Source: Blasia pusilla (taxonomy: Eukaryota). Taken from it: a DNA stretch of 64,000 nt. The position numbers and the translations under genes were made by a program. The stretch lies in contig CM114271.1 in the NCBI GenBank assembly GCA_050084515.1, positions 20,770,001 to 20,834,000 of the forward strand, given 5' to 3'. This document shows, one piece after another, positions 1 through 40,759 of the stretch. The notes below the pieces were generated by a model. It saw only the letters and a program-made list of their open reading frames with translations. It was not told the origin of the DNA and did no database searches. The first letter of the stretch is position 1. Each line of letters begins with the position of its first letter.

Positions 1-1816
1 TCCACACACCCAATATCCCCAAATAAACTACCCAAATCCCAGAATCCCTCACACGTGCAGGGTAAAGGACCAGAATGGGTAACCTGAACACATGTCGATG
101 TCGCTCCTCATAAACTATGAATCTCGACCCCAACTCGTTCGTGGAGACAACTCCTCCAATCAGCAAGTCATACTCCTCCCGTACTGACGTTGCTCAAAAC
201 TCCTCGATAGACGGTGCAGTTCCAGCGGAACGGTGCGCGTTGCAGGCGGCACGGAACGGCATGGCCCTCGATGATGGGATGCGGCACTCGGCGGCATACC
301 CTCCTCAATCAACAATAAACCCACACTCTGCTCCACAATGCCAGAGCGGCTCCGCGATCAAGACGGTGCGGTATGGCCACGAGCGGCACGGCGCGGCAAT
401 CGACGGCGCGTTGCGGCTACGGGCGTCACGGCACGGTACCCAATCTTCGTTGAGCGGCTACCAATCACAACATAGCAGCAGGAAATCAAAACTCAAACAC
501 TATAACATGAGGTCATATGCCATCACAGGTTGATGACGGTGGCGGCCAAAACAAAGTTCGTGATGGCCACGCAAGTCCGAGAATCAACGAACGTTGTGGA
601 AGACCCTCCACTCCGTAACGGTGGCAATAGCAACCAAGGGTGGAAAACGGAAGGTGGACCATTGACGGTGACGGTTGACCGTTGATGGTGACGGACCAAT
701 GGTGACAGTGACGGTTGACCGTCGAAGGTGAAATTTTACCGTTGACGGTTGACAATGACTATGACGGCGACGGACGCCGCCGGTGTGGCGGCTGGTTTAG
801 GGTTTGCACAATTTAACCCTAAAAATTTCCTAGCAATGGCAGTATTGCACAGCGTGCACAGCTTCACGATCTATGCCAGCATTAAAAAATATTTGGAATC
901 GGACATTCCAGTAAAAACTGACAGGGATTGTTGTAAAGCCCAATGTCTCTTTCTTCTACCCAACATTCGGCAGCGCTTCCGCGCTGATTCCTCCCAAAAT
1001 AATTGTAAAACCTATAAAAATGCAAATCAGCAAGCGACATGGTGCTCCCGAAAGCACCGGCATGGGGCAACCCGCCCCCATACTCAATCCCTATCAGAAA
1101 TTGGGCAGCGCTTCCGCGCGCCACTCTTTCACACGAAAAATCGGCAAATGCAACGAAAAATCCAAGCAACCCTTGCTCCGATGAGCACTCCCATGAGCCG
1201 TTGAATGGGGAACACGGTCCCCAACCTACAAAAACAACGAGTGACCAGCGAGCTCCTCCATGAACCTCTCTCACTCTCTCATTCTCGCATTCTCTCTTTA
1301 TAAAGTAAGATTCAATCTCTCTCTACACAATCTCACACCATAGCTCTCAAAGGTGTGCACTCTCTCTCATGTCAAACCAAACCCACTCTCCTAATGAAAG
1401 GCTTGGGTTACACTCACAAGGCAAGGGACCATAGCTCCGCCGCCTCATGCCAAGAGGTTCAACAAAGAGAGAATGAGCTCTCAAGCTCTCTCTCCTTGGG
1501 ATATATACTCCTCCCCTCTCCCAAGCTCTCTCCATGGTAACCTATTCTTCCAAGTCACCTCTTTGGCTCTTGACCTGATGTAGGAGGTCAAGGGCCACTT
1601 ACCAAAAATAGAAAGTCGATCATATACTCAAAATGGTACTTACCTAAAATGGTAAGTTCCTCAATATGGTTCCAAATGAGCCAAAACGAAAGGGAAACCT
1701 ACTCTCTCAGGTTTCCCGGGGCCTCAGCAAGTCATCCTCGACCTCCTAGGCCTGTCCTCCACTACTCTTGAAGAGGCTCTACTAGATCTCATCGATCTAT
1801 CCTAAAGGACGTGATA
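1..1816 (-). mobile_element. 5' end of a second copy of the split-repeat Gypsy family: repeat A (1816-1301) plus leader region running off the window start
   Basis: Reverse complement of 1301-1816 aligns by eye with 19662-20176, 27227-27744 and 30125-30637. About 760-1300 aligns with the leader at 20177-20755. It starts TATCAC (consensus TGTCAC). Confidence 0.85.
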
Positions 1817-2180: not shown

Positions 2181-3350
2181 ATTCGGCCCTTGGTAGAGTC
2201 CACGTAGGAGTTAGACGTGCAACAACATTGAAAACAAAGAAAAAATGCGTGCAGTCATAAATGTGTGGGGCTAAAAAACTGGAAACATGTAGGTAAAAAT
2301 TGTAAGTGCAGTAAAGAGGAAAATGCGTGCAACGTGAAAAAGTGGAAGTCGATAGGTAAAAATTGCAAGTGTAGCAAAAATATGGAAGGAATAAGTTGAA
2401 ACGGATGCACGCGATAATGAAGTTTGTGGGCAACGAGGTTGTGTTGGCATGAACTGAGAGTATGGATGTGGTAAAATAGGTAGGCTTTGTAAAGGGCCTT
2501 GCTTCATCACTTGTATGAGCAGGAGAGTATATTCAAAATAGCTAAGCCGTGGAACTCGAGTCTATATAGGTATGATCACTACTGTATATTAGCTCAATGT
2601 ATCCATGGTCATGAGATGGCAAACTATTATGCTCATTGTTGTACAGTATTTCAATGCATCTGTAGCCATGAGTTGGTTAACGTAAACCAAGGTAGTTCAG
2701 AGCGAGAGGTGATTTTAAAGAAGCAAGTATAGAAATTGTGAGCTGCAATATAAAATGGAAAAACTACAAGAAATTAGGTAGTTGAATGTCCTTTAGTAGA
2801 ATATATGAAATAAGTCTTTCTACATGATAGGTGAGGACTGAAACGTGAAAGTAGTTGCGGAATGCAAGGGCGTTGTATCGACAATAAGTTAAATTTGTAT
2901 GATTACCACGTTATGAGATGATTTAGAGAATATCAAAAAGCATCTACATCACATAATTAAATGCATCAACACACTGCAATAAAGTTCATGGGACAGCAAG
3001 CAGTAAACTTGTGGATAAGAAGCATAAAAATCGGAGTAGTTATAATGAGAATAAGGCATCTCGCATGCTTTACCTTGGCTTAAATGTAAGAGGAACCAAT
3101 AAAATTGCTAGTATGCTACAGTAAAGTTGTCATCGTTGCTTGTAGTAAAACTACAAGCAACGACGACAACTTTACTGTAGACAGAAAATGCAACAACAAT
3201 TGGGGGCATGGGAAGAGCAAAAACCAGAGTTGAGATTGGGGAAGTAATTTATAGGCACAGAAAATTGAGTTGGACATGGTAAGCCAATTAAATGTACTGC
3301 CCATAGCTATGTTTGGTGGTAGCAGTACGATACTGCTTGATGGTGCACAA

Positions 3351-4945
3351 CTATTGGAGGGCGACAATCAGATTATGTAAGTCGAGATTAGCTGGACATT
3401 GGTGTAGACAATGTTTCTCAAGGATAGCGTTGATTTGTTGGCGGAGAATGGCAATCTTGTCGACATTGTAGTCATGCTCCTTAGTAACTGATTGCATTAC
3501 TGTACATAAAATATCATTGTGACGCACACTATCATCGAGACGGTCTTGCACTATTCCAATATTATTGAGAGCTTCATCAAACAGTGTGATCGGAACGATG
3601 TCATTGTTGTAGATCAAGTCTCCCATGGGTGGTAGCTCAATCTTTGTGCTACGTGAACGTTTTTTTCTTTTTTGTCTTGCATAAATGCTTACTCTGCGTG
3701 AAGAAGGAGTATGGTAGCTAGATATCTTGGAGCAAGAACCAACACAACTATTAACAATGCTCAATTGTGTATTGTTGCAAACTTAGAATTGTGGACAAAT
3801 TGAAACACGTTGTAAGTGATACGAAGCATATAGTAGCAACTTGAAGTAAATATTGAGATATTTTAACGACTGTCAAATCTATCAACACTTAAACATGTGA
3901 TCACATGGTTGTGTGTGTCCAAGAGTAGGGGAAATGAAAATGAGGAAACTCACATGAAATGCAGTAGCTCCAAAACAAAAGAAGGAAATCGTAAAGAAAT
4001 CAATGTGGAATAAATGTGCTAGCAAAGCCAGAAGTTATCTTGAAAATTTTGATAAAAACTTTTTCTCTATAGCTGATTGAAACGTGCTGCCACATGAATG
4101 AAGTTGGTTAACAAAATTCTATGGGCCGATACAACCGGTAGTGAAGTAGGTTTAGCCTTGTGTCAAGTATGTCTAAGAAGAATTGAACAATCTGACAAGA
4201 AAAAAATTTTGAATTCAGCATCACTTTGCTCAATACCGGAATAATGTAGGTAGGCCAAATGTGGAAGCAAATGTGCGGGTACACGTTCAACAATGATCTT
4301 GCAAGCGTTGCCATTTAAAGATATGTTAGAGGCAATATAAGGTTTTAGTAAAACAGAATGTGAAACAATTAAGGATGTGAAAATCAGTGGGCAGTAAGCA
4401 TCAGGCTTACAAAGCACATATCTGGCGTCATATACACTTCCTCTTGTTTGGTGACTCTGATTATACAACTTGGGTCCCTGGTAGCTAGTTCCCTAATCGT
4501 ATAAGTGGGAAGCCTGAAAGTGTTCCGACTGTGTAGCACCCAAGGTGAAACTTGGTGAGCCTAAGTGGCCACTAGGAAGAGGAGTGAGGTTTGCAATCGC
4601 ATTAACAATTGTACCAACTTCTTTGGCAACTTTAATCCATTCAAGTAACTGAGCAGCTTTTGGAGACAAAAAAATTATCATCCTGTTAATAGGTAGCTTC
4701 ATGAGTACGCGCAACTCCTGAAATTGATCAGGCGTAATGCCCCCACTTAACCTTGAGTAGTGAACGGAAGCCTCTTGACGTGTTAGTTCGGCTTCATTAT
4801 ACTCAATATTTTTGTAGCTCACAATCTCCTTTTGAATCCCTATAGCAAATACATAACAATTACTGATGTCAATGAGTGGCAAAAGAACCCATTGAAAATT
4901 GCACCTATGATTTTTTACTTGTAAAAAAAAGGTGCAAGAGAACAC
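3351..4945 (-). pseudogene. Disrupted coding-like region of unknown function (probably TE or virus cargo)
   Basis: ORFs 4493-4945 and 4163-4468 are in the same frame, separated by one TAG. A probable frameshift at an A/T run near 4200 leads into 4108-4314. A further 137-aa ORF lies at 3351-3764, and TATAAAA is on the minus strand near 5025. No recognisable motif. Confidence 0.35.
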
Positions 4946-19025: not shown

Positions 19026-19661
19026 TTAGTTTGCACATATGTAAGTTCCTCGGGGCAAGAGTTGGAAGGATGAGTGCAAGCTAGCCCTCATTCTCTCATG
19101 GAATTTACATTGCGAAATACTATGGGGCAAGGGTGGGGAGTGCGGACATGGACGGAAAGTAGAAGGAAAAGAGGGCAAGGTTTGACGGAAATGGACAAGT
19201 CTGTCCATGGGCATGTGGACCCTGCGCACGCTATGTGAACGGTCCCTACGGGCCTCCAAACGTTTACAGTGTGCAGACTCTAAACGTTCAATCCTTGCCC
19301 ACATCTGTTTCCACGTCTCTCGCCCCACAGGCGACCAGGATACCAAACATGGATGCATAAAAAGTCCATCCCTAGGAAAACATGGAAGGACAAGTTTAGA
19401 CATGTCCACGGACATAGATTACAAGAGGAGGGGCCCATATATACTTATAGTTTATGATGGAAAATAGGGCAAGGTTGAGTGGGACAATAATGGGGGAGGG
19501 AGTGGAGGTGGAGGGAGGAAGAAATGGGAAACTCGAGAACATGTAGATAAGTGGAGGGGGAGGGGGGAGGGTTAGACCTACAAGAAGGGGTGAGTGGGGC
19601 CCATATGGATAATTCCTTCCATAGGACGGACGTAAGTCCACGGACATGGACATGTTTGTCG
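19026..19661 (+). mobile_element. hAT-type MITE-family sequence interrupted by the Gypsy insertion (resumes at 27873-27904)
   Basis: GGACATGGAC/GTCCA-rich sequence similar to 40464-40759. It continues after 27872 as gccgacacgaactttatccatatgcaacattg, matching the family's right end. The left boundary is uncertain. Confidence 0.7.
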
Positions 19662-20176
19662 TGTCACGTCTTTTAGGATATATCGATGAGATCTAGTAGA
19701 GCGCCTTTGTGAGTAGTGGAGGACAGGCGTAAGAGGTCAAGGATGACTTGCAAAGGCCCTGGGAAACCTGAGAGAGCAGGTTTCCCCTTCGTTTCGGCTC
19801 ATTTGGAGTCATATTGAGGAACTTACTATTTAAGGTAAGTACCATTTTGACTATATGGTCAACTTTCTATTTTTGGTAAGTGGCCCTTGATATCCTACAT
19901 CAGGTTAAGAGCCAAGGAGGTAACTTGGGAGCATAGGCTACCATGGAGAGAGTTTGGGAGAGGGAGGGGTATACCTGAAGGAGAGAGAGCTTGAGAGCTC
20001 ATTCTACCTTTGTTGAACCTCTTGGCATGAGGCGGTGGAACTATGGTCTTGCTTGTCTTGTGTGTGTAACCCAAGCCTCTCATTAGGAGAGTGGATTTGG
20101 TATGATATTGAGAGAGACCTGTGAGAGTGCACACATTTGAGAGCTATGGTGTTGCGAGAAATTGAATCTTGATTTA
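19662..20176 (+). repeat. Repeat A1 (contains putative TATA region and TSS near 20001)
   Basis: Direct repeat of 27227-27744, sharing diagnostic indels (atggtcttgcttg, gaatcttgattta) not found in the copies at 1301 and 30125. Confidence 0.9.
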
Positions 20177-20188
20177 CAAAGAGAGAAC
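20176..20188 (+). promoter_or_regulatory. Putative self-priming primer-binding site
   Basis: ACAAAGAGAGAA(C) is complementary to the family consensus ATTCTCTCTTTGT at the predicted TSS. No TGG-type tRNA PBS is present. Confidence 0.6.
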
Positions 20189-20759
20189 GAGATAAGTGAG
20201 AGAGCTTCATGGGGGAGCTTGCTGGTCACTCGCTGGTTTTGCAGGTTGGGGATCTTTTTTCCCCGCTCAGCAGTTCATGGGAGTGCTCACCGGAGGATGA
20301 GCCGAAGCGGCTCATATTTTATGTTTCCTTTGCCGATTTTTCGTGTGGAAGCGTTGCGCAATTTTTGATAGGTATTGAATATGGGGGGAATTTCCCCATG
20401 CTGGTGCTCTCAAAAGCACCATGTATCTTGTTGATTTTTTTTCCATAGGTTTTACATTTTTGTTGGGAGAGCGTGGAAGTGCTGCCAAATTTTGTGTAGG
20501 AGAAAAAGACGTTGCGCTTTACAACAATCCATGTATATTTTTACTGGAATGTCCGATTAAAAATATTTTTTGACGCCGTCGTAGATCGTGAAGATGTGCA
20601 CGTTGTGCAACAGATAATCTGCAATTTGAAGTGCGAGCAAAAAGTTATGGTCAATCTTGCAAAATTGCCATTGCTAGGCAATTTTTAGGGTAAAATTGTT
20701 CAAACCCTAAACTAGCCGCCGCGCGGACGGCGGCCGTCGCCGCCACAGTCATCGTTTAG

Positions 20760-20948
20760 GAGTTGGTGCGACTCACAACGGGCTAGGAAGTCTCGAGAGT
20801 TCAACCCGTTGACAGCATGGAATAGTATGTTCTAGCATTTATCAACACTCAGTTAGCTGCTATTTTGCAAGCTGGAGTGCGCGTGCAACAGTACATGTAT
20901 GTAGAGGTTGATGATGTTGCGAGGTGTGCTTCACTTCACTATGTAGAA
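20760..20948 (+). pseudogene. C5 cytosine methyltransferase remnant, N-terminal (motif I-II region)
   Basis: From 20841: INTQLAAILQAGVRVQQYMYVEVDDVARCASLH, the pattern that follows the FxGxG motif and includes the acidic motif II. Motif I itself is frameshifted. Confidence 0.6.
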
Positions 20949-21353
20949 AATATGATTCTCAAATGCAAATAATCTATATTAAAAGAAAGAAATAATATAT
21001 TTTACAATAAACATACGTAAAATATTTTTCAATCTTCTTGTAGAATATTAATGGTATCTACATAATAATGGATATACACATATGCTTCCAATATTAGATA
21101 GATATTCTTTCAATACAAAACCCATGTCCATCGCAGAACTCACAATGTAGCACCTTCACTAACATCATGCAAGAAAATTACGTCGTAGACATTATCTATT
21201 GATCCAAGTCCATTGCACATAAAACTGCTCGTAAAGAGTACAAACAAGCCATAAATAGAACTACATATGAGATATCTTGACAATGATGGTATCGCCATCA
21301 TTCTCATGGGAAATCCCATCATGCGCTCTTGTTTCTCAATATTGAGTTCTACA

Positions 21354-21603
21354 TAGGGTTGCACACGCACAAAGTCCGTGATCGTTGACACGTTCATATC
21401 CGCGGATTTATGTTTGTCATACGGATGGACGTGTTTGTGTTGGCTCAGGTATCCGGAAGCCCTCCCACAGACCGCCCTACGGGCCTACCATGGGCCCCGC
21501 AAAGGATGCGGGCTCTGTCAGCCTAGGTGTACGCGCCGGGCTCAGGTGTGGGCTAGGCATGTCTGAGGATATGTCCGCACTTGTCTGTTTCCGTGCAACC
21601 TTG
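21354..21603. mobile_element. hAT-type MITE
   Basis: TIRs TAGGGTTGCA / TGCAACCTTG; perfect 8-bp TSD GTTCTACA (21346-21353, 21604-21611). Confidence 0.9.
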
Positions 21604-21677
21604 GTTCTACAAAATGTTTTCTTATGCCTGATCATCCCAAATCAAACTAGAACATCCCTCCTTGTAAGTATTGGGGA

Positions 21678-23285
21678 AAAGGTTGCATATGGGCAAACTT
21701 TGTATCCGCGTATATGTCAATGTCTATGGACTTTCGTCAGTCCTATAGAAGGACTTGTGTAATGTACAAGAAGTATAAGAATTGATCTTTTTAGAGTTAT
21801 TTAATGAGTTTGATCCCCAAGAGGATCACGATTATGTGAAAAGAGAGTTTAAGTTGGCATTTATCTTGCAATAGTTGTAGTTAAGTGTGTACAATTCGGA
21901 TTCAATCACTGATCTGTCTATCCTTCTCTCCATTAGTTCCAAGATTTCTTTCCTTGATTCTCTCCAGTGGAATTGAATTCACGCTTAGGTAGATCTTCAC
22001 TCAACACCAAAGAACCTTAGAGAGACCTCAACAAGAAGTTGGCTTCTCCTACTTTCGGAACTCAATCCGTCTAGGCAGGCTACTCTCTATCAAACAGACT
22101 TCTTACAACTTGATGTTGAATATTCTAATGATGAAAGTGTTCTCCTGATCCACTCTTCACTCTACAGACCCAATAAGAATTCTCAGACATATGCATCGCA
22201 CATCAGAATGAAGAAATGAGTTCTTTACTACCGCATCAAGGATGAGAAAGCTTCAAAGTGTATACAAGCTTGAGAGGGTACCACTCCCTTGCTCGGACCA
22301 TTCCTACAATATAAGGACTTCGTGAAAGAATGATAAATAAATTCATGCTTCTTAAATATCTTTCAAGGTTGTAGTAGGTCCAAAGATCTGAAGCGTCTCT
22401 TATGAATCTAGTACCTATTGAGAGTTTAAAACTACCTTGATCTACGGTTCTCTTATCTTTTCCTATGATCGCTATGAATCCGCTGGGCTTAAGTGTCCTA
22501 ACTTCCTATCAGGTCCAAAAAGCCACGCCTCTTCCTAGCCTAACTATTCTAACGGTGTGCCGCTTGAAATCACGACAAGTCTTAGTTTCGCTGCGAAGTC
22601 TAGACCTCTTCTTCTTCCTTTGAGGACGAAGCTCTTCCTCTTGGTCTGAGGACGAAGCGCTGCATTCTTCACGTTTGTTCCAAGTGCTTCGTTCTTCGTG
22701 CTTCACTAAAGAGCAAAGTACTTCTTCCTCTTCTTCTTCATCGTGCTTCTTTCAAGAGCGAAGCACTTCATAAATAGGTTCTTAATAAGGCTTCGTTGTC
22801 TTTTCCAAGCTTTTCTCTGAGTCTTTACACTTAATTACTGCATTTCCCTCTCCTCTAAGGCAAGTCCTTGATTTTCCACCTCTCTGCCTTGTCCTAGGAG
22901 CCTCGTGAGCCACTTCAATACTACTCATTCTTCCAATACACAAACATAATATCTTAAAAAATGATGTATATACAAGCTTTACTTCATAGAGTCTTCATTC
23001 CTTGAATCAAAAGGTGCAAATCTCCAAAATTACAAAATTGTGGGTATCACAACTTGTCCACGTGGCCCCATCCCTCACTTCTTTCTCATTCCCCCCATTT
23101 GCCTTTGTGATCCGCACTTTTTGTTTCTTCTTCCTCTCCCCTCCACTCCATCTCCCCTTATTGCCCCACCCTTTGCCTTCCACCATGAACTATAAGTGTG
23201 AGCCCTATCTTTTGCAATCCATGTTTGTGGGCATGTCCAAACTTGTCCATCCAAGGGACAGATTTGTCCATTTTTTGCAACCATG
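21678..23285 (-). mobile_element. hAT-type MITE containing a nested solo LTR
   Basis: TIRs AAAGGTTGCA / TGCAACCATG; perfect 8-bp TSD ATTGGGGA (21670-21677, 23286-23293). Confidence 0.9.
21758..23051. mobile_element. Solo LTR (~1.3 kb) of an unrelated LTR family
   Basis: Ends TGTAAT...ATCACA; perfect 5-bp TSD ACTTG (21753-21757, 23052-23056); host MITE resumes in register. Confidence 0.85.
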
Positions 23286-23469
23286 ATTGGGGATAGGACA
23301 ATCGACTAGTGTGAAGGAGTATTTCTCTTGGCATGCTATCTATAGTATTGACCACACTCAATGGAGGTTGATTATTGGGCTTCATTTCTTTTGATCGATA
23401 TTTGAGATCCAAAATTGGATCTACCAGCAACTTGGATTGAGGGAAGCTCCATCAGTATCGTCCGTTTTT

Positions 23470-23600
23470 GTGACTTGTTATTTGCGTCTACCATTCAGGG
23501 TTACCAGAGTTCCCTACCGAGGGATATTTCATTGTTGGGGGCGCAGGACTTGGAGCGGGTAGGGACCATCGACTTGGTCACTGCTCGTTGGCCATGTCAG
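23470..23600 (+). pseudogene. C5 methyltransferase remnant with motif III and catalytic motif IV
   Basis: LPRDISLLGAQDLERVGTIDLVTARWPCQ matches the DI...D-hhh-G-x-PCQ signature; Pro-Cys codons at 23592-23597. Confidence 0.8.
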
Positions 23601-23859
23601 AATCAAATCTCCATGTGGCAAGACCCAAGGAGATTGATACACCAAGGGTGATTGGGAGAGACACCCTTGGACTTCTTGGGATGTTTTGTAGATAAGCCAG
23701 GAGATGGTAGCCACAGCATCAAGCGTGGTTGCGGGTACTGCACATGGAGATTTGATTTTGCAGTTGGTTGCAGAAGAGCAGTCGAGTTTCGTTGTTCGAG
23801 ACGGGGTTGCACCATAGCAACCACCTACACCCGCGTTGGAGAGTCCTACCATAGTCACG

Positions 23860-26780
23860 ATGGAGACATGGGAGCTTGATATGGGTCCTAAGATGACAAG
23901 AGGAGAGCGACGCTGGATACATCGTTTCCTTAGGAGTCATAGGAGTTGTTTTGCATTTAACATGTAGGATTTGGGTAACCTGATGGGTCCAGGGATCCGC
24001 ATTGAGTTTTCAGTGACACCTCGATCTTCCGACGACCCTACAGGTATAGTGACATGGAGAGGGCTCTGATTCAGAGTAGGAGCCTGGACTTGGTTGGAGC
24101 AAAACTAGTGGAGATGTCACATGGAGAGTATGCATTTGCCACTGTCATGCCCGCCAAGAAGGATGTGCATGGCAACAGGACAGATAGGTGGATGTGTGGA
24201 GATTACCGATCTATCAATCAGTGGACAAAGTCCGATAGATATGCCATATCCACTCTTGAGGAGATCTTTGATGCTATTGGGCCTGCAAAGGTCTTTAGTT
24301 CATTAGATCTTCGAGCCGGATACCATCAGCTGCCTATCAGATTGGAGGACAGGCAAAAGACGGCATTTTGGGGCATCAATCCTCACGAGAAGGATTGCTT
24401 GTACCACTGGCGGTTCTTACCATTTGGGTTAAAGAACGTCTTGGATGAGTTTCAAAGGGTCATGGATAGGATCTTGGCAGGTCTAGATGCTGCTAGGTGT
24501 TATGTTGATGACATCCTTGTCTTTAGCGTCACCGTTGATGAGAAGGAGCGACATCTAGAGGAGGTCTTTCGAAGATTATAGTTACATGGGCTGAAGCTAC
24601 ATCCAAGCAAGTGCAATTTTCTCTACGACCAGATTGAGTACTTGGGTCATACGATATACCCAGCTCGTGTTGATGTGCAGCAGATGAAGGTAGAGGTTAT
24701 TTTACCCATTCTACGCCCTACAGATATGAGTCGAGTTCGTGCATTCATGGGATTGGCAAACATCTATCGACAATAAGTCAAGGGTTTTAGCTCGATTGTG
24801 AAGCGGCTGACCTTGCTGACCAAGGTGGATCAGGAGGGGCAATGGGAGGATGAGCAGGAGAGAACATTTCACATGCTCAAGGATAGATTGACGTCCGCGC
24901 CCATATTGAGGATACGATGAGGGGGCGTCCTTTCTAGTTGCATACGGATTGGAGCATGTTCGGGCTTGGAGCCGTGCTCACCCAGCATGACGATGATGGT
25001 AGAGAGTTTTTGGTGGCTTACTCTAGTTGCTCAAACAACGTTGCAGAGGCGAAGTATAGCTCGTATGAGGGTGAGTGCTTGGCTACAGTGTGGGCTATCA
25101 TACATTTCAGATGTTATCAATCCGGAAATCCCTTTACCATCATTACTGATCATCAGCCGCTCAAGTGGTTGATGGAGTCTGATAAGCTTACATGGAAGCT
25201 TGCGAGGTGGGCTCTTTTGTTGCAGGAGAATGATTTCCATGTGGTGCAAAGACCCGGGATGCTCAACCAAGATGCAGATGGTTTGAGCCATAACCCATGC
25301 ATGAGTGAGCGAGATGCGAATGGAGCTTGTTGGCATGGTGAGAGTGATGAGGAGTTGGTGCCAAGATGGCATGCGTCAGCCTATTTGAGCTTGTTGGCTA
25401 TGGAGAGCCAGATTGCTGAGACTTCGATGTCAAGCTCTAATGTAGAGTCCTTAGATCCAAAGGCCGATGAGGAGACGACAAGTGACCGAGACATTCACGA
25501 TGATGGATTGGTCTTGAAGAACCTCCATACTAGAAGTATCGCGAGCACAGTGGGTGCTAGAGAGTGGGATCGGATCTTACAACAAGCCAAACAGTTTCGG
25601 TGAGAAGGCATACATGTGTTGCGAGTGTGGGAGGATGGTAGAGTGCATGTAGTGCCTCATCCTTTGCAGGGAGCACGTTTGGTGTGTCATGCCCACGAGG
25701 AGTTGGGTCATTTTGGAGTGAAGCGGACGTACATCTTGCTCCAGATTCAGTATTGGTGGCGAGGCATGCAGACTGACGTTTAGCGGTTTGTTGCCTGATG
25801 CATGGTGTGTGATCGAGTCCGAGCATCGTTTAATGCTCCGACTCCAAAGCTGCATCCACTTCCGATCATGGGTTTAGGTTATAGATGGATTTTGGATTTT
25901 TCAACACCTTTGCCTTTGACGGAGCGCCATTATCGCTATGAGTTGGTGATGGTCGAGCAATTCTCGAAGTAGATAGAGTTTGTTGCATTTCCTGACAAAG
26001 CGAGTGAGAGAGTAGCGTATGCCTTCCTAGATTGGGTGCTAAGTCATTATGGCACACTAGCTAAGGTGTTGACAGACCAGGGTATAGAGTTCCGTGGGGA
26101 GTTTCAAGCCTTGTGTAATCAGGCATTGATCGACCATCGCACTACTTCACGAGATCATCCTGAGGCGGATGGACTAGCGGAGCGGGTTGTGTAGATGGTG
26201 AAGAGAGGACTACGCAAGTATGGGTTGTAGAGAGGTCACCTAGGAGATTGGGACCTCCAATTGCCGTGGTTGGCGATGGGATACAGATTTAGCATATAGG
26301 CATCCTTAGCGTCTTTCTCATCGTACTTGCTTTTGTATGGTCGAAAACCAAATTTACTTGTGGCCATTCGTCAAGATGTTGGTGAGGAGTTGAATCTTGA
26401 TGACCTTCATGTATGGATACAAGCATGTTCTCAGAGGGCTGAATTATTTCAGAGATTGATGCCCATGGCGTTTGAGAACTTGGCGATTGCAAGCATGGGA
26501 ATACATTGAGGTATGCAACTATACGGGGAGGTGGTTATCTACCTACTATCTAGAGGTTTCATCAAGGAGACTATGTCTACTTGCAGCAGACGGCAGCCAC
26601 ATTGTTGGATGTGATTGCATGGTGCACCATCTTGAGAGTGCGTGAGGTTTTGCCATCACGTGTTCTCTTATTGGAGGGACGCAATGGTATGGTTTGGAAG
26701 GACCCTATGCGTAACTGTGCGCCATGTCACCTTCCGAACATTGACAGTATAGTTGATGCGAGCTTAGCAATAGTTCATGC
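23860..26780 (+). pseudogene. Gypsy pol: RT, RNase H, integrase (disrupted)
   Basis: RT: MCGDYRSIN, LDLRAGYHQL, KTAFWG, LPFGLKN, YVDD. RNase H: HTDWS..GLGAVLTQ, ECLA, TDHQPL. INT: H..H..C..C near 25690-25810, LTDQGIEF, DGLAER. Confidence 0.95.
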
Positions 26781-26790
26781 AAGCTTGCAA

Positions 26791-26931
26791 TGTATGTTGT
26801 GTGGTTCTGCCCGCGGTGCAGCCACTATCCTAGTCTGTGATGGATGTTCGAGAGGATAGCATATGGCATGTTTGATGCCACCTCTCACTAGGGTTTCTCA
26901 GGGATGATGGATGCATCTTAGATGTACATAG
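26791..26931 (+). pseudogene. PHD finger at the C-terminus of the integrase
   Basis: CMLC-x11-CDGC-SRG*HMAC-LMPPL...WMHLRC, i.e. C4HC3 spacing with premature stops. Confidence 0.85.
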
Positions 26932-27098
26932 CGTAGGTAGTTCTACATTCCAATTTGTGTCTATGACATGGATGACAAGAAGGCGACTAACGATGGGGCC
27001 ACATGAGCACCTGCCCTTCTTGCTCTAAGCGTTTGAGAGATGTATGTCATGGTAGGTAGGGAAAGATGGCTATCTACAGTTAGAGGGACCTAACCACC

Positions 27099-27111
27099 AA
27101 GTAGGAGGGCG
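27099..27111 (+). promoter_or_regulatory. Putative polypurine tract
   Basis: AAGTAGGAGGGCG directly abutting repeat B1. Confidence 0.6.
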
Positions 27112-27872
27112 ATTGGAGATATTTTGGTACTTTTTGTGTAGTTGTTTGGATGTCATGAGTAATCATGGGATCGTGTGTGTTTGTGTGTTTGTGTTCAGTG
27201 ATAGCGATGTGTATGCGCACGACAACTGTCATGTCTTTTAGGATAGATCGATGAAATCTAGAAGAGCGCCTTTGCCAGTAGTGGAGGACAGACTCAAGAC
27301 GTTGAGGATGACCTACTAAGGCCCTGGAAAAACTTGAGAGAGCAGGTTTTCCCCTTCGTTTCGGCTCATTTGGAGTCATATTGAGGAACTCACTATTTTA
27401 GGTAAGTACCAGTTTGAGTATATGGTCGACTTTCTATTTTTGGTAAATTGCCCTTGATCCCCTATATCAGGTCAAGAGCCAAGGAGGTGACTTGGGAGCA
27501 TAGGTTATCATGGAGAGAGCTTGGGAGAGGGGAGAGGTATACCTCAAGGAGAAAGAGCTTGAGAGCTCATTCTGCCTTTGTTGAACCTCTTGGCATGAGG
27601 CGGCGGAGCTATGGTCTTGCTTGCCTTGTGTGTGTAATCCAAGCCTCTCATTAGGAGAGTTGATTTGGTTTGACATTGAGAGAGAAATGTGAGAGAGCAC
27701 ACATTTGAGAGTTATGGTGTTGGGAGAGATTGAATCTTGATTTAATTGGAGATATTTTGGTACTTCTTGTCTTGTTGTTTGGATGCCTTGAGTTAGCATG
27801 GGATCGTGCGTATTTTTGTATGTGTTCAGTGACAGCGATGTATGTTGTGTACCGATGTGTATGCATAGGACA
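27112..27872 (+). repeat. 3' repeat block B1 (27112-27224) - AC - A2 (27227-27744) - B2 (27745-27872)
   Basis: B1 and B2 both begin ATTGGAGATATTTTGGTAC and end ...GACA; junction CACGACA-AC-TGTCATG. Confidence 0.9.
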
Positions 27873-28546
27873 GCCGACACGAACTTTATCCATATGCAAC
27901 ATTGCTACAAAGAAACCCAAGAGGGAGACCCATTGGGTGTGTTTGTCCCATGGACGGTAAAATTTGTATTGGTTGCAACCTTGATATGTTCCCATGCAAC
28001 TTGGTTAAATCCCTCTTTATTTTAAATTTAAATGCTTTCCATCGTTATGCCTCCATCTCAATTAAAAAAAAAAATTTGGACATACCCTAAAATAGTCCCT
28101 TCCTCCCTCTTCATCTCTATTACTTAGGGAGAATAGCTTCTTGAATTGCAAACACCTCTTAAATTAATTGACGCATGGCAATAAGGTAGCAAGAAAATGT
28201 TTTGGTAAAACGGAAAAAATATGAGTTTTAATCATTATTGGTCTCATGTATAGCACTAGATACACACTAGTTACTAATAACTAATAATGCATAAAATTTT
28301 ATTTCTTATTTTAAATGCGCTCTTCATAATTAATGGAATCGTGGAAAAATAAACTAGTTTTAGTGAGATATTGCTTCTTGAAAGGAAGGGATTTCTTTTG
28401 GAGGAAATTGCACCTTAGGTATATTTATTTAGTTCATCCTTCTAAAAAAAAGTAAGAAGATACAAATTTATTTCAATTTAAAAATATTGAACCCATGGAG
28501 AGAAAGAAATTTTCTCTTCTTTGCAGGAATAAACATGTTGTCTTCA

Positions 28547-29141: not shown

Positions 29142-31310
29142 TTAACCACATAGGTCAACGTGTATCGTCTCTAGAGGAGCCTTTGCTCTATTGCTGGACT
29201 CTTGTGGAGTTGGTCGTTGGTGTTGCTTGCCCATCATACAAGCTTCACATGCATCCAACACTCCAAAAATTGTTGGTAAATCAGAAACCATGCCAGATTT
29301 CTGCATCTGACTCAGTAAGGGAAAGCTTAGGTGACCAAATCTTTCGTGCCACAACTTACTACTACCAAGATCTGTATCTACACTTGTCGCGAAATCATAC
29401 AACTCGTACATATTTCCACGCCGTATATTTCATCCACTACTTTCCCATTGGCATCCTCAATGACTGCTCCAAATTTCTTAAAACAAACTTGTAAGTCGCG
29501 ATCACATAATACTGCTACTGAAAGTAAATTGCGCTTCAACTCTAGTACACACAGTACGTCAATTAACTTCTTTTCATCTCCTTTTTTTGAGACTAAAGAA
29601 ATTGTGCCTTTCCCTTCTACATAGCACTTTGCATTATTCCCAACTGTAACAACAATGGGCTCTTGCAGAGGCTATAAGGAGCTATACCAATCCTTATGAT
29701 TGGTCATATGCCTATAAGCTCCACTATCGAGCACCCATGCATCTTCACTCTTTGACTTAGTGGAATATTCTACCTGTGTGCAAAACTCTTCAATTGCTAC
29801 GCAAACATCCATCTCCTAGCAAGCATTCTAGTTCTACAGAATTTCTATACCCTCTTTTAGGTCTTAAAAAACCGTTCTTCTCATCCTAACTCCTCTTTCT
29901 ACAATCTTTGATAAGATGACGTAGCTTACCATAATCTAAGAATTTGAAAGCTTTCATTGGAAAAAAAATTTCTTGATATTTGAATTTTAATCATGATTTC
30001 TACCTCCCTGTACGTTGGTAGTAAATGCTGCATCACTTCCCTCTCTTGCTTTGAAGTGTATTTCCTCTTCTACCAACATTGCACTAAATTGTTCAAAAGT
30101 AAGCGACGTGGGTCTTACTTGAGTTTTCACGTCTTTTAGGATAGATCGGTGAGATCTAATAGAGCGCCTTCATGAGTAGTGGAGGACACGCTCAGTAGGT
30201 CGCGGATGACTTGCTGAGGCCCCAGGAAACCTGAGAGAGTAGGTTTCCCCTTCGTTTCGGCTCATTTGGAGCCATATTGAGGAACTTACTATTTTAGGTA
30301 AGTACCATTTTAGTATATGATCGAATCTCTATTTTTGGTAAGTGGCCCTTGACCTCCTACATCAGGTCAAGAGCCAAGGAGGTGACTTGGGAGAATAGAT
30401 TACCATGGAGAGAGTTTGGGAGAGGGGAGGGGTATACCTGAAAGAGAGAGAGCTTGAGAGCTCATTCTCTCTTTGTTGAACCTCTTGGCATGAGGCGGCG
30501 GAGCTATGGTACCTCGCCTTGTGAGTGTAACCCAAGCCTCTCATTAGGAGAGTGGGTTTGGTTTGACATGAGAGAGAGTGCACACCTTTGAGAGCTATGT
30601 TGTGAGATGGTGGAGAGAGAGATTGGATCTTACATTAATTGGAGATATTTTGGTATTTCTTGTCTCGTTGTTTGGATGCCATGAGTTAACATGGGATCAT
30701 GCGTGTTTGTGGGTGTGTTCGGTGACAGCGATGTATGTTGTGTAGCGATGTGTATGCGCACGACAGAATATTCAATGCAGTGACCAAACTGTCATACCTC
30801 GGAGGCAAAATCCTTATGCACCGACGTGCCAAATCTTCGCTAGACTTTGAAATTCCTACGGACGCCATCTGATCTTGAAGAGTCTTGATCCTCATCAAAA
30901 ATTTCTCCACGCTTTCTCGTTCTGAAAATTTCTCAAACATAATCTAATTCTCTAGATTCTGAATCTGAGTCTCATTCCTGGTTGCATACTGATTCTTTAG
31001 AATGTTCCACACCTTAACAACAATGGTCGTAGTCATGACAGAATAGTTAGTTACATTTGTGAAAATTGCATATAGAGCATTAGTGTTTCCATGCCAGCAA
31101 TACTTCACGATTGATATCACCAGAGAAAGATGAACATGCAGAACTCAAAGTAGCTTTTGGATTCAAATCGACCCTTGTGGTCGTCTCCCATATCTTCAAT
31201 TATTCGAGGATAGTTCTCATTTTGAACTTCCACAATGTATAGTTAGACCCATCTAACTTTCCTTCATCCAGCGGAGGAGGGCGAACATAATCTGACGAAG
31301 AAGTAGCCAT
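29142..31310 (-). mobile_element. Truncated Ty1/Copia gag-protease-integrase start
   Basis: ATG 31310 MATSS..KLDGSNYTLWKFKM (gag), LPPRYDSLVTAL, WVLDSGA..HMT (protease, ~29720), LWHERFGH..CEAC..GKQH..IHVDLCG (GAG-pre-integrase / INT start). Confidence 0.92.
30125..30765 (+). mobile_element. Solo A-B unit of the split-repeat Gypsy family inserted in the Copia gag
   Basis: A 30125-30637 directly fused to B 30638-30765; ends CACGACA; 4-bp TSD GAGT/GAAT; removal restores Copia frame ALNTQVRP. Confidence 0.9.
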
Positions 31311-37500: not shown

Positions 37501-39697
37501 GAGGTTACTTTCCCATCTTTGCAATAAGTGTGTTGATTTGACAACTATTCTGTGGTTCTAGTTGGGACATTGTGTGTAGGATGTGAATGAAAAGCTGTGG
37601 ATTTGTCCTCCTCCACTGTATCAGGGAGTGGCAAAAGACAATGTTGCCTCAGGTAGATGGCAACACAACTTGCAGCATGAGGATGCCCCAGTGCTGAGAA
37701 ATTGGACGAATTCTTGGGCTGAACAGGTCAAGCTTGGAATTTGATTATTTAGCATTTGGACAATTTCAAAGAGAGAGTGGTAACAACACAGTTGTAGTTA
37801 TGGGGCAGGACGTGGTTCATGCAACAATGCTTTGTCACTATTTGGATCTTTACCAAACCCATCTGGGCTCCTTCCATCTAGACACGACCAGCTTGAGCGT
37901 CATCAACTTTCCAGACGGTGCATTCAGCAAGGGTATCATACGCTGTATAAACTACTCTCCTCATTTTGGACATTGGGCAGTGTCAGTGACAAGGCTTGCA
38001 AGAGCTGAGGCAAAATTCAAATCTGCAAAGTTACCACACTGCCCAAGCACCATGAGAATTTGGGTGAAGGAGCTCCAATCGAATTCCTGTCGATCACAAC
38101 ATGTTCTCCCTCTATCTCAGCAAATTACATTCCAATAGAAGCCATTATCATTTTCGACAACCAATGGTTGTCACATCTCCAGTGGGAGGAGATGGAGAGC
38201 TTCAAAGGATAGAATTCATCAGTGTCCAAGATCTTTGGTCATATGTCATAACTCCACCGAGGAACCTATTAGCACTGATTTCCAAATCCGTTCCTGGTTC
38301 GTTTCTTGCATGGTTTATTCTACCTCTACAATTGCGTTTCAACTTCTCTAGATCAAAAATTAAAATGTAGGAGCCAAATTTGGAGAGTTCATTGCAACTA
38401 GCGCTTAGTAATGTCGAGTCGTCATTTGTGAAGGTGGTCGTGGTTGAGGTAGCTGTCGTAATCTCAAAAGTTTTGGAGATGATTGTCGAAAGTGATCATC
38501 TCACATGTCATGTCCGTGTAGGAGAGTAGTGTTGTCAAGGAGGGGTTAGAGGAGTAGTATGTTCTATTACAACATTGGGAGAGCACACGTTCCACCTTTG
38601 GAACTTTTTAAGGTCATGGGGATGTGTGCGGCCCCGATCAAGATTATTCTCCTTTATGAATGGAGTAGTGATGTTTAGTAGTACTGATTAGCTCTTGCTG
38701 ATTATGTTTTCAAAGAGATTAACTATGAATACAATAGTTTGCTCTTGTATTTTCTATCTCGTTGTGTTATGTATGCATCTTCTCATTATTTCAGATTAGA
38801 TATATGCGTGTTAGAGAGGAATACATTAGAGCTCACTCCTTGTTACTATTAGACTTGTTAGTGGGAACGCTCCTATCTTGTAAATCTAAAACAAAATTAT
38901 TCTTTCACTATCATTTGGATGTAATAAAAGAGATTCTAGCTTTTAAAAAAATTACCATTTAAAAGAGTTAGTCATATAAAGCCAACTATAGTCATTTAAA
39001 CAAACCAAAATATGATTACTCATATTTTGTGACTCATGTACATGCAAGTATTTAAACATACCAACCTTATCAAGATGACTCAATCCTAGACTCAATCATA
39101 TTTTTTGATTTGTCCACATTTAGTTATTTAGACGAACTAGAGTGATTAGTATGACTTATGACTCAATCATTTCAAGTCATTTAGACAAATGACAGTGATA
39201 AATATGACTCGGTAGAACCTTATGACTCTATTGTCTCAAGTTATTTTGATAATTAGAAGTGATCAAAATGACTCAAATTTATGCTATGACTCAATCATAT
39301 CCAATCATTTAACCAAATCACAAGGATAAATGTGACTTTGTCATTCTTCGCGACTCAATCATATAGGAAAATCAAATGATGAATATGACTCAGTCATAAA
39401 AATTCATAACCACGTGTCTGAATATACCTTATTCACTTAATGTAATTTCCACGTCATATGGTGACATGGAAATCATAATATATGACTAAGTTTTCACATG
39501 TGGAAAAGCTTGTTGACGTATCAATCATATAACATAATGATTACTAGAGTCATTCCAAAATTACTCTAGTCATGGCATGGTACATGACTAGGCTTTTATG
39601 ACTCCATGAGTCATCAGTCATTACGAGTCATTTATGTACAAACATGACTATGATAAGTCATATAAGTAAGTCATAAAAACCATGATTTGTTCTAGTG
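34519..39697. mobile_element. Non-autonomous CACTA (En/Spm) element
   Basis: TIRs CACTAGAAGAAAACCATGG / CCATGATTTGTTCTAGTG; 3-bp TSD CGT on both sides; dense subterminal ATGACT/AGTCAT repeats at 34540-34780 and 38970-39675. Confidence 0.93.
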
Positions 39698-40463: not shown

Positions 40464-40759
40464 CATGGTTGCACAAAATGGACAAGTCCTTATTCAGGAC
40501 GGACATGGACGGACGTTTGGACATGTCCACAAACATGGGTTCCAAGAGGTAGGACCCACACTTTGAGTCCATGATGGAAGGCAAGGCAAGGATGAGAGGA
40601 GCAATGAGGGAGGAGGGAGGAAGAAATGGGGGAGTATAGAACACGAAGGCAAGTAAGGGGAATGAGAAAGAAGGGAATGGTGGGGCCTATATGGACAAGT
40701 CCTTCCATAGGACGGACATAAGTCCACGGACACGGACTTTGTCCACATATGCAACCTTG
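40464..40759 (+). mobile_element. hAT-type MITE (intact)
   Basis: TIRs CATGGTTGCA / TGCAACCTTG; perfect 8-bp TSD GTGATGCA (40456-40463, 40760-40767). Confidence 0.92.

Follow-up and report, generated by a model that had tools for sequence, protein, structure and literature searches.

A decayed Ty3/gypsy element occupies positions 19662-27872 (plus strand) of the window, by which we mean the whole 64,000-nucleotide (nt) stretch of the Blasia pusilla genome analyzed here (contig CM114271.1, positions 20,770,001 to 20,834,000). When its parts were compared with the window by blastn, they fell in the order A1-internal-B1-AC-A2-B2, in which segments A and B are each repeated and a 2-nt spacer (AC here, NN in general) separates B1 from A2. 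We consider it probable that this is a replication-type Ty3/gypsy copy, produced when an intermediate with its U5 end joined to its U3 start was cut by a DDE integrase at an internal B-NN-A site. In the textbook view, retrotransposons with long terminal repeats (LTRs), as well as retroviruses, insert linear complementary DNA (cDNA) by its LTR ends, and LTR-LTR joined forms are by-products. The lineage described here keeps the U5|U3 joint within every replication-type copy, and it is abundant and transcribed in this species.

Layout and insertion termini

The two copies of A (19662-20176 and 27227-27744) are 90.0% identical over 518 nt by blastn of parts against the window, and those of B (27112-27210 and 27745-27841) are 85.9% identical over 99 nt. 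The sequence cgaca-ac-tgtca at 27220-27231 marks the B1|A2 boundary, with GACA at 27221-27224, AC at 27225-27226, and TGTC at 27227-27230. A preliminary description of this DNA, made from its letters alone, had reported this joint, and both the sequence and the blastn-confirmed repeats bear it out. The GACA-AC-TGTC site is the internal attachment junction, that is, the inner B|A joint, of a replication-type copy. The repeats, signals, and neighboring copies are as follows.

19658-19661 (+): left target-site duplication GTCG, sharing three of four positions with GCCG at 27873-27876
19662-20176 (+): A1, the 5′ repeat, beginning TGTCACG; internal sequence follows directly, with no B between
19970-19974 (+): TATA-like tatac, upstream of the predicted transcript start
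20000-20013 (+): cattctacctttgt, by complementarity the decayed partner of the post-A primer site and predicted transcript start
20177-20189 (+): putative self-primer binding site CAAAGAGAGAACG, following A1, from a complementarity scan
20177-27111 (+): internal region, from Pfam on single open reading frames (ORFs), alignment to relatives, and read depth
27099-27111 (+): polypurine-like tract aagtaggagggcg, adjoining B1 and homologous to CTAGGGGGGCGAG, preceded by GGACCTAACCAC, of related loci
27112-27224 (+): B1, start of the reverse-transcription LTR (U3 start), ending ...GCGCACGACA (blastn, sequence)
27225-27226 (+): 2-nt spacer AC separating two integrase-type termini
27227-27744 (+): A2, beginning TGTCATG (blastn, sequence)
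27745-27872 (+): B2, ending ...GGACA and joined directly to the end of A2 (U5|U3 joint 27744/27745; blastn, sequence)
27873-27876 (+): right target-site duplication GCCG
30125-30765 (+): solo A-B, with flanks GAGT/GAAT alike at three of four positions (blastn)
1-1816 (-): second, more diverged copy that runs off the window, with A at 1816-1301 after unrelated flank and then directly internal sequence

A complete LTR pair at both ends of the inserted copy is not found: the 5′ end is A alone, and the 3′ end is B-NN-A-B. The bare motif CGACANNTGTCA, allowing at most one mismatch, occurs 3 times in the window where 3.4 occurrences are expected, and at least 3 are found in 64 of 100 shuffles. What lends the junction site weight is not rarity of the motif but its location where B meets A and the fact that related elements have it as well.

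Relatives turned up in liverworts and charophytes when the RNase H ORF was used as query, and the Pfam domains listed for these 55 relatives were compared; many list RVT_1, RT_RNaseH, an integrase zinc finger, rve, and PHD, and some also a DNA methylase. An alignment of 13 relative proteins retrieved 80 metagenome loci, which were analyzed by self-comparison and by mapping of probes from one of them (L020). Records that flank comparison showed to be duplicates were merged (L004 with L014; L065 and L069 with L066; L015 with L038; L030 with L037). The best-sampled family, called family M here, provided four independent full A-internal-B-NN-A-B copies (L004, L020, L066, and L078), with A1/A2 86-92% and B1/B2 91-96% identical, as well as three further B-NN-A-B 3′ ends (L012, L016, and L040). 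Other lineages have B1/B2 pairs directly 3′ of pol at five loci (L033, L045/L079, L052, L054, and L061); an upstream A1 was not found in the L045, L054, and L079 lineages. Left out of these counts were three loci (L001, L002, and L076) that have ...GACA-GT/GC-TGTCAC... palindromes 3′ of pol and no second A/B within the contig. Split direct repeats in the A1-internal-B1-A2-B2 order of DIRS elements are present both in the window and at these loci, and the layout is not a one-off but extends to the whole lineage, in bryophytes and streptophyte algae.

All four independent full copies are flanked by perfect 4-bp target duplications (TCTC, AAGG, CATA, and AATC). They are placed precisely at TGTCATG... 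and ...ACGACA, which makes the start of A and the end of B the true insertion termini. TG...CA termini with a 4- to 5-bp duplication, as is usual for Ty3/gypsy elements, are found in the related copies, and the window element retains the duplication at three of four positions.

The spacer was 2 nt long at all 13 verified junctions (those with B on both sides of A, duplicates merged), which represent several lineages and run from ...ACA to T(G/A)T.... Its sequence in family M is GC in L016, L020, and L040, AT in L004 and L078, AC in L012, and TC in L066; in the other lineages it is GT, GT or TC (differing between the two records of a single locus), AC, GT, and AT, and in the window it is AC. 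GC, the commonest spacer, forms the perfect palindrome GACAGCTGTC (16 nt in L020). The length of the spacer is constrained and its sequence is not. Conservation of the spacer, to which the preliminary description had attached weight, thus holds for its length, whereas the dinucleotide AC is not general: it is that of the read consensus in the window's own species, and GC predominates in family M.

The idea that the spacer is made anew in each cycle, prompted by four dinucleotides at five early junctions, was rejected once the larger set proved to contain mostly transitions from GC. We read the family M variants as decay of GC, since transitions in CAGCTG occur at a frequency similar to that of neighboring CpG decay. 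Two records of one insertion with the same 3′ flank (L045:13040-13056 and L079:13036-13052) differ at both spacer bases, GT versus TC, and L065 and L069, the duplicate records of L066, differ from it at one base, carrying GC instead of TC. These differences involve transversions, and methylation decay is no explanation for them.

Priming signals and the U5|U3 joint

Directly before B, in all 25 rows spanning the boundary between the polypurine tract (PPT) and B, stands a G-rich purine tract (GGACCTAACCAC...CTAGGGGGGCGAG; aagtaggagggcg in the window). At the other end of the repeat, the bases following A are complementary to a site within A itself. This complementarity extends over 16-17 nt in L020 (ACTCAAAGAACTATGT against ACATAGTTCTTTGAGT), 12 nt in L030, and 10 nt in L056 and L078, and the minus-strand copy of the window retains an intact 12-nt pair (AAAGAGAGAATG against CATTCTCTCTTT). 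In each such copy, the exact partner lies 171-176 nt before the end of A and has a TATA-like box ~30 nt upstream. A mismatch-tolerant scan of 12 5′ ends found the best 14-nt complement 172-177 nt short of the end of A in eight of them; for five of the 12, no more than 2 of 200 shuffles reached the self-primer score. Over 14 nt, 13 positions pair in the minus-strand copy (copy 2) and 11 in the element at 19662-27872 (element 1). The first 13 nt after A1 (20177-20189) read caaagagagaacg; at position 20188 the reads have T, restoring ...GAATG as found in copy 2.

As two families have different sequences at the same place, the self-primer pairing covaries. This points to priming of the Tf1 type, in which the 5′ end of the RNA pairs with the bases after U5, with the 5′ end of the transcript predicted to lie within A. 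One further locus (L050:3245-3885) consists of B-GC-A, then a 16-nt primer site, then an inverted A (1 to ~179) that ends ...GGTCATGACA (CATGACA) at unrelated flank. It resembles a relic of the fold-back priming step, as if an over-long primer had been copied into plus strand and the copy trimmed by integrase at the internal CA.

The primer site by U5 and the purine tract by U3 that characterize Ty3/gypsy elements are thus present, but they bound B...A and not the inserted termini. With the PPT at the start of B and the putative self-primer site next to the end of A, reverse transcription builds an LTR of B+NN+A, and A would be the part of that LTR whose end is the U5 end. This agrees with the LTR that the preliminary description had drawn from its priming signals. 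The primer site appears to be a self-primer and not a tRNA site. The proposal of the preliminary description that the LTR contains the integrase-type termini, facing each other across 2 nt, is upheld by the 4-bp duplications around A-start...B-end. It had also derived the A|B junction from the joining of cDNA ends, which follows from an LTR of B+NN+A, since the A|B joint is then the U5|U3 joint.

In family M this joint reads TCA-(G/A)-TTGTGG in five of seven independent copies, with the U5 end flush with the first bases after the purine tract. The two deviant joints are those of L012, which lacks two U5 bases and keeps four bases of the purine tract, and L004, which has a 17-nt insert partly repeating A. 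Both A|B joints in the window read TTTA|ATTGG, and the main class of reads has one A fewer. In contrast, the PPT|B and B-NN-A spacings are invariant. If cDNA ends are joined anew in each cycle, one would expect the joint to be exact in most copies and irregular in a few. The preliminary description had held that a variable A2/B2 joint would count against it; such variation is present (two of seven), yet we read it as support, because the joint would be remade in each cycle.

We also examined reads from the same species, placing a ~1% sample of one whole-genome shotgun (WGS) run at 80% likeness on 20100-27950, together with RNA from two stranded raw-read runs (X15 and X16). The family proves highly abundant, with a summed WGS depth of ~2400-3400 over reverse transcriptase (RT)/integrase and ~4800 in A, and depth is unbroken over the A1|internal boundary (823 at 20165 and 837 at 20188). 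The A|B joint (20152->27745) was found in 234 WGS reads and three variant joints in 58, 47, and 12 reads; the joint from B into the end of B1 was found in 455, with a far side of up to 85 nt. Past 27864, 1672 WGS reads continue with the consensus GCACGACA-AC-TTTCACATC... (TTTCAC after AC) at an agreement of 0.5, as expected if A follows half of the B copies and flank the other half. No B->internal or internal->A joint, the signature of a canonical [A+B] LTR, was present among the 15 joints listed of 282.

In both RNA runs, sense reads reach much the same depth (45-270) over the internal region and over B1, AC, and A2, as transcription of B1-NN-A2 as U3 would predict; the depth bins of 262 nt are too coarse over A and B to place the start or end of the transcript. 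The A|B joint was found in 6 and 6 RNA reads versus 234 in DNA, and a joint within A in 58 and 35 versus 655, so that A|B joints are two- to threefold underrepresented in RNA relative to DNA, on small counts. At 27078-27112, ~100 reads of run X16 match the conserved stretch before the PPT and then continue into GTTGTGGTACACTTGTG..., the B start of the metagenome family. A second, family M-like subfamily thus seems to be transcribed in the same species as well.

A proposed cycle and its alternatives

In the cycle that we propose, transcription would start within A1, ~175 nt from its end, and the RNA would fold its 5′ end back on the 12-17 nt after A to prime the minus strand as in Tf1, a step that the covariation supports. 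The purine tract, judging by its position, would prime the plus strand at the first bases of B, giving an LTR of B+NN+A. Integrase would use TGTCA... (the start of A) and ...GACA (the end of B), which face each other across 2 nt within this LTR and are shown to be termini by the target duplications. To give the inserted layout, the U5 end (the end of A) would first have to join the U3 start (the start of B), and the A|B joint is present in every A-internal-B-NN-A-B copy. At one B-NN-A site, integrase would then cut each strand 3′ of CA, the predicted chemistry, and insert the product with a 4-bp stagger. Since the integrase sites are placed inside the LTR, the joined intermediate would be part of the normal cycle, and internal cutting of a U5-U3-joined intermediate by the DDE integrase is well supported.

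The joined form could be circular, or it could be linear cDNA with an extension on the right. The route through a closed 2-LTR circle is plausible. A stronger version, in which integrase obligatorily uses a closed 2-LTR-type circle and cuts its near-palindromic site of abutted ends (GACA-GC-TGTC in family M) as the IS30/IS3 transposases do, is one that we hold only tentatively, as somewhat less probable than its negation. Random cutting of a closed circle with two identical B-NN-A sites should make half of all insertions A-B-NN-A-internal-B, and this reciprocal permutation, which the preliminary description had predicted, was found at none of 13 5′ ends: B was upstream of A at 0 of 11 independent 5′ ends in the loci and 0 of 2 in the window. 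Of its proposal, the need for U5|U3 joining is upheld, while the missing reciprocal form speaks against the simplest, symmetric version of the closed circle.

Several other observations weigh against the cycle as drawn. The joined intermediate is deduced from inserted products, and the start and end of the transcript are placed by prediction. The window copy is dead, with many stops and its gag lost. The 5′ TG is not retained throughout in this species: A starts TTTCAC and not TGTCAC in the read consensus, TT in the solo A-B, and TA in copy 2. Read-joint evidence covers the best-supported 15 of 282 joints, and rare forms may be hidden. The presence of A|B joints in RNA implies that some transcripts read through. 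A third form, A-internal-B without the added repeats, is common and was unforeseen by the preliminary description: 12 of 20 independent family M 3′ ends are B|flank, and four full A-internal-B copies have 4-bp duplications, three perfect (TGTG, TACA, and TGTT) and one with a single mismatch (GGTA/AGTA). Such plain copies may have arisen through B x B deletion of the standard form, through A x A collapse of the reciprocal form, or directly, from a one-LTR form that was cut or from linear cDNA cut internally. When flanks were compared for one insertion occurring both with and without the 3′ A-B, which would catch B x B deletion in action, only duplicate records were obtained.

An alternative with the same element and the same LTR of B+NN+A does without a circle; we consider it unlikely, if clearly ahead of the others below. 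Here the plus strand would switch templates end to end, from the U5 end onto the U3 start, so that the linear cDNA grows on the right alone, by one extra B or more; the left cut by integrase would always fall at the start of A, and the right cut at the end of either the first B (A-internal-B) or the added B (A-internal-B-NN-A-B). This would account for the occurrence of just two forms, with the reciprocal one at 0 of 13 5′ ends, as well as for the abundance of A-internal-B copies with 4-bp duplications. The L050 locus shows that cDNA can extend past the U5 end and still be trimmed exactly at the internal ...CATGACA, and the variable G/A of the A|B joint would be compatible with a non-templated base added ahead of a template jump. 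However, the jump is itself a supposition, integrase would have to remove >100 nt from the left end, and fast A x A collapse of tandem 339-bp repeats could equally explain the missing reciprocal form, and the sample is small, at 5 full copies with repeats.

Two other explanations fare much worse. The solo A-B at 30125-30765 resembles an ordinary TG...CA LTR of A+B, and the window element could in principle be a one-off rearrangement of a canonical element with such LTRs, through loss of the 5′ B plus a duplicated B, two adjacent insertions, or an assembly artifact. Yet every junction is common to the two window copies, to abundant read joints, and to independent loci of other assemblies; the purine tract lies at the start of B and the primer site at the end of A, not at the start of A and the end of B; and the canonical joints are missing from the 15 read joints listed of 282. 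We regard this explanation as scarcely credible. Hardly better is a DIRS-order (Ngaro/PAT-like) element moved by a tyrosine recombinase, with the integrase a mere passenger, an idea that we find highly improbable even though an A-internal-B-A-B layout is described as typical of DIRS-type elements in the accessible text of PMC5890265. The Phage_integrase domain (PF00589) is missing both from the Pfam domains listed for the 55 relatives and from the 10 L020 ORFs scanned of 24, whereas rve and the zinc finger are conserved, and the copies show TG...CA termini and 4-bp target duplications. Tyrosine-recombinase elements are not known to make such target duplications or termini.

The closest known systems resemble this lineage in some respects and differ in others. 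In DDE elements of the IS3, IS30, and IS21 type, the ends abut across 2-3 bp and the junction is the reactive substrate. The analogy is apt in geometry, namely abutted ends with a short spacer; unlike the present lineage, those are DNA-only bacterial elements with no reverse transcription, whose spacer comes from the donor flanks. In Tf1 and the sushi group of Ty3/gypsy, the bases right after U5 pair with the transcript start, as is predicted for this lineage. Tf1 has two complete LTRs and its integrase acts at the cDNA ends, whereas here the insertion termini are internal to the LTR; the C terminus here is a PHD finger, and no chromodomain family appears in the Pfam lists of the relatives. 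According to the accessible text of Neumann et al. (2019, PMC6317226), self-priming has also been predicted for the plant Tcn1 and TAR lineages.

The nearest biochemical precedent, as far as the accessible parts of the reports go, is the cutting of LTR-LTR circle-junction palindromes by foamy virus and HIV-1 integrase (PMC1180852, PMC1905944, and PMC4372172). Common to both are a retroviral-type integrase, an internal palindromic junction, and a cut 3′ of CA on both strands, the chemistry being a prediction in our case. As those parts present it, the viral palindrome is formed by the U5|U3 joint, and cutting it is no more than a side route; in the present lineage the cut site is inside the LTR, the U5|U3 joint survives insertion, and the route appears to be obligatory. 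DIRS-order elements (Ngaro, PAT, Kangaroo, and SymbioDIRS) have the same A1-internal-B1-A2-B2 order, with an internal B|A joint mirroring the joined ends, but encode a tyrosine recombinase, whereas this lineage has a DDE integrase, TG...CA termini, and 4-bp duplications.

The layout has been noted once before in this lineage, without analysis in the accessible text: the legend of Fig. 4c in de Mendoza et al. (2018, PMC5890265) describes KnitGypsy-Dnmt3 of Klebsormidium nitens as having repeats as in a DIRS element and the domains of Gypsy. That remark stands alone there, with no termini, target duplications, priming sites, or mechanism given. In the literature as accessible to us, this one legend is all that we found, with no account of the lineage's termini, duplications, priming sites, spacer, or mechanism. 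KnitGypsy-Dnmt3 belongs to the same protein lineage, a Klebsormidium protein (P0040, with RVT_1, DNA methylase, and rve) being matched at 41% identity. It differs in carrying a methylase, of which the window copy shows none and L020 a weak trace (3.9e-4, below cut-off).

The lineage offers a natural system for asking whether a retroviral-type integrase can take a circle or an internal site as its main substrate, and it links the DIRS-type split-repeat layout, so far unexplained, to an element with a DDE integrase. If the closed-circle reading were true, the supposedly dead-end 2-LTR form would be a real integration intermediate, and the split-repeat layout would be set by the positions of attachment sites relative to priming sites, not by the kind of recombinase. 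In practice, LTR-finding programs that demand two full LTRs and matching duplications would probably miss or misdraw such elements in bryophyte genomes.

Internal region and neighboring sequence

Pfam, run on single ORFs of the internal region, matched RVT_1 (3e-16), RT_RNaseH (2e-29), and rve (1e-4) in this order along 24006-26191. The order RT, RNase H, DDE integrase is that of Ty3/gypsy (Metaviridae) elements, and the Pfam lists of the relatives are concordant.

24006-24581 (+): RT (Pfam RVT_1)
24938-25603 (+): RNase H (Pfam RT_RNaseH)
25604-26191 and 26300-26506 (+): zinc finger and DDE integrase (rve, alignment to the relative P0029)
from about 26785 (+): PHD-type finger, interrupted by stops (alignment to a relative)

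The integrase core of the window element is 66% identical to that of P0029, and the C-terminal stretch leading into the PHD-type finger is 55% identical. In L020 the PHD match reaches 4e-10, and upstream of RT (L020:5627-6094) there is the weak match to a C-5 DNA methylase (PF00145) mentioned above; several relatives have the full domain. The methylase in relatives, together with the L020 trace, ties the lineage to KnitGypsy-Dnmt3.

The stretch 20925-23495 is not family sequence: read depth is 17-500 over 20886-23505, against >2000 elsewhere, and 73 WGS reads join 20924 to 23496, skipping it. It is probably one or more other repeats substituted for gag. RNA reads over 21672-22981 are mainly antisense to the element, and about 23050-23285 resembles 40464-40700 of the other strand (72%). 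Past 20841, 881 WGS reads diverge into GAGGGGGCGCCCATGGACGATTACCATGAG (agreement 0.92); this continuation is probably the start of the gag ORF lost from the window copy.

In the minus-strand copy, the internal leader (1286-752) directly follows A and is 72% identical to that of element 1 by blastn. The solo A-B at 30125-30765 is the product expected of A1 x A2 recombination. The flank upstream of A1 (19420-19660) is G-rich and repeat-like, with ggagg runs and ggacat...tccacggacat repeated, and probably belongs to another mobile element that received this insertion. Unrelated to the element, 39028-39337 contains five tandem-like units of ~53-64 nt, each of the form T[AGT]TGA[CT]T...ATGACT and 60-83% identical to the reference copy.

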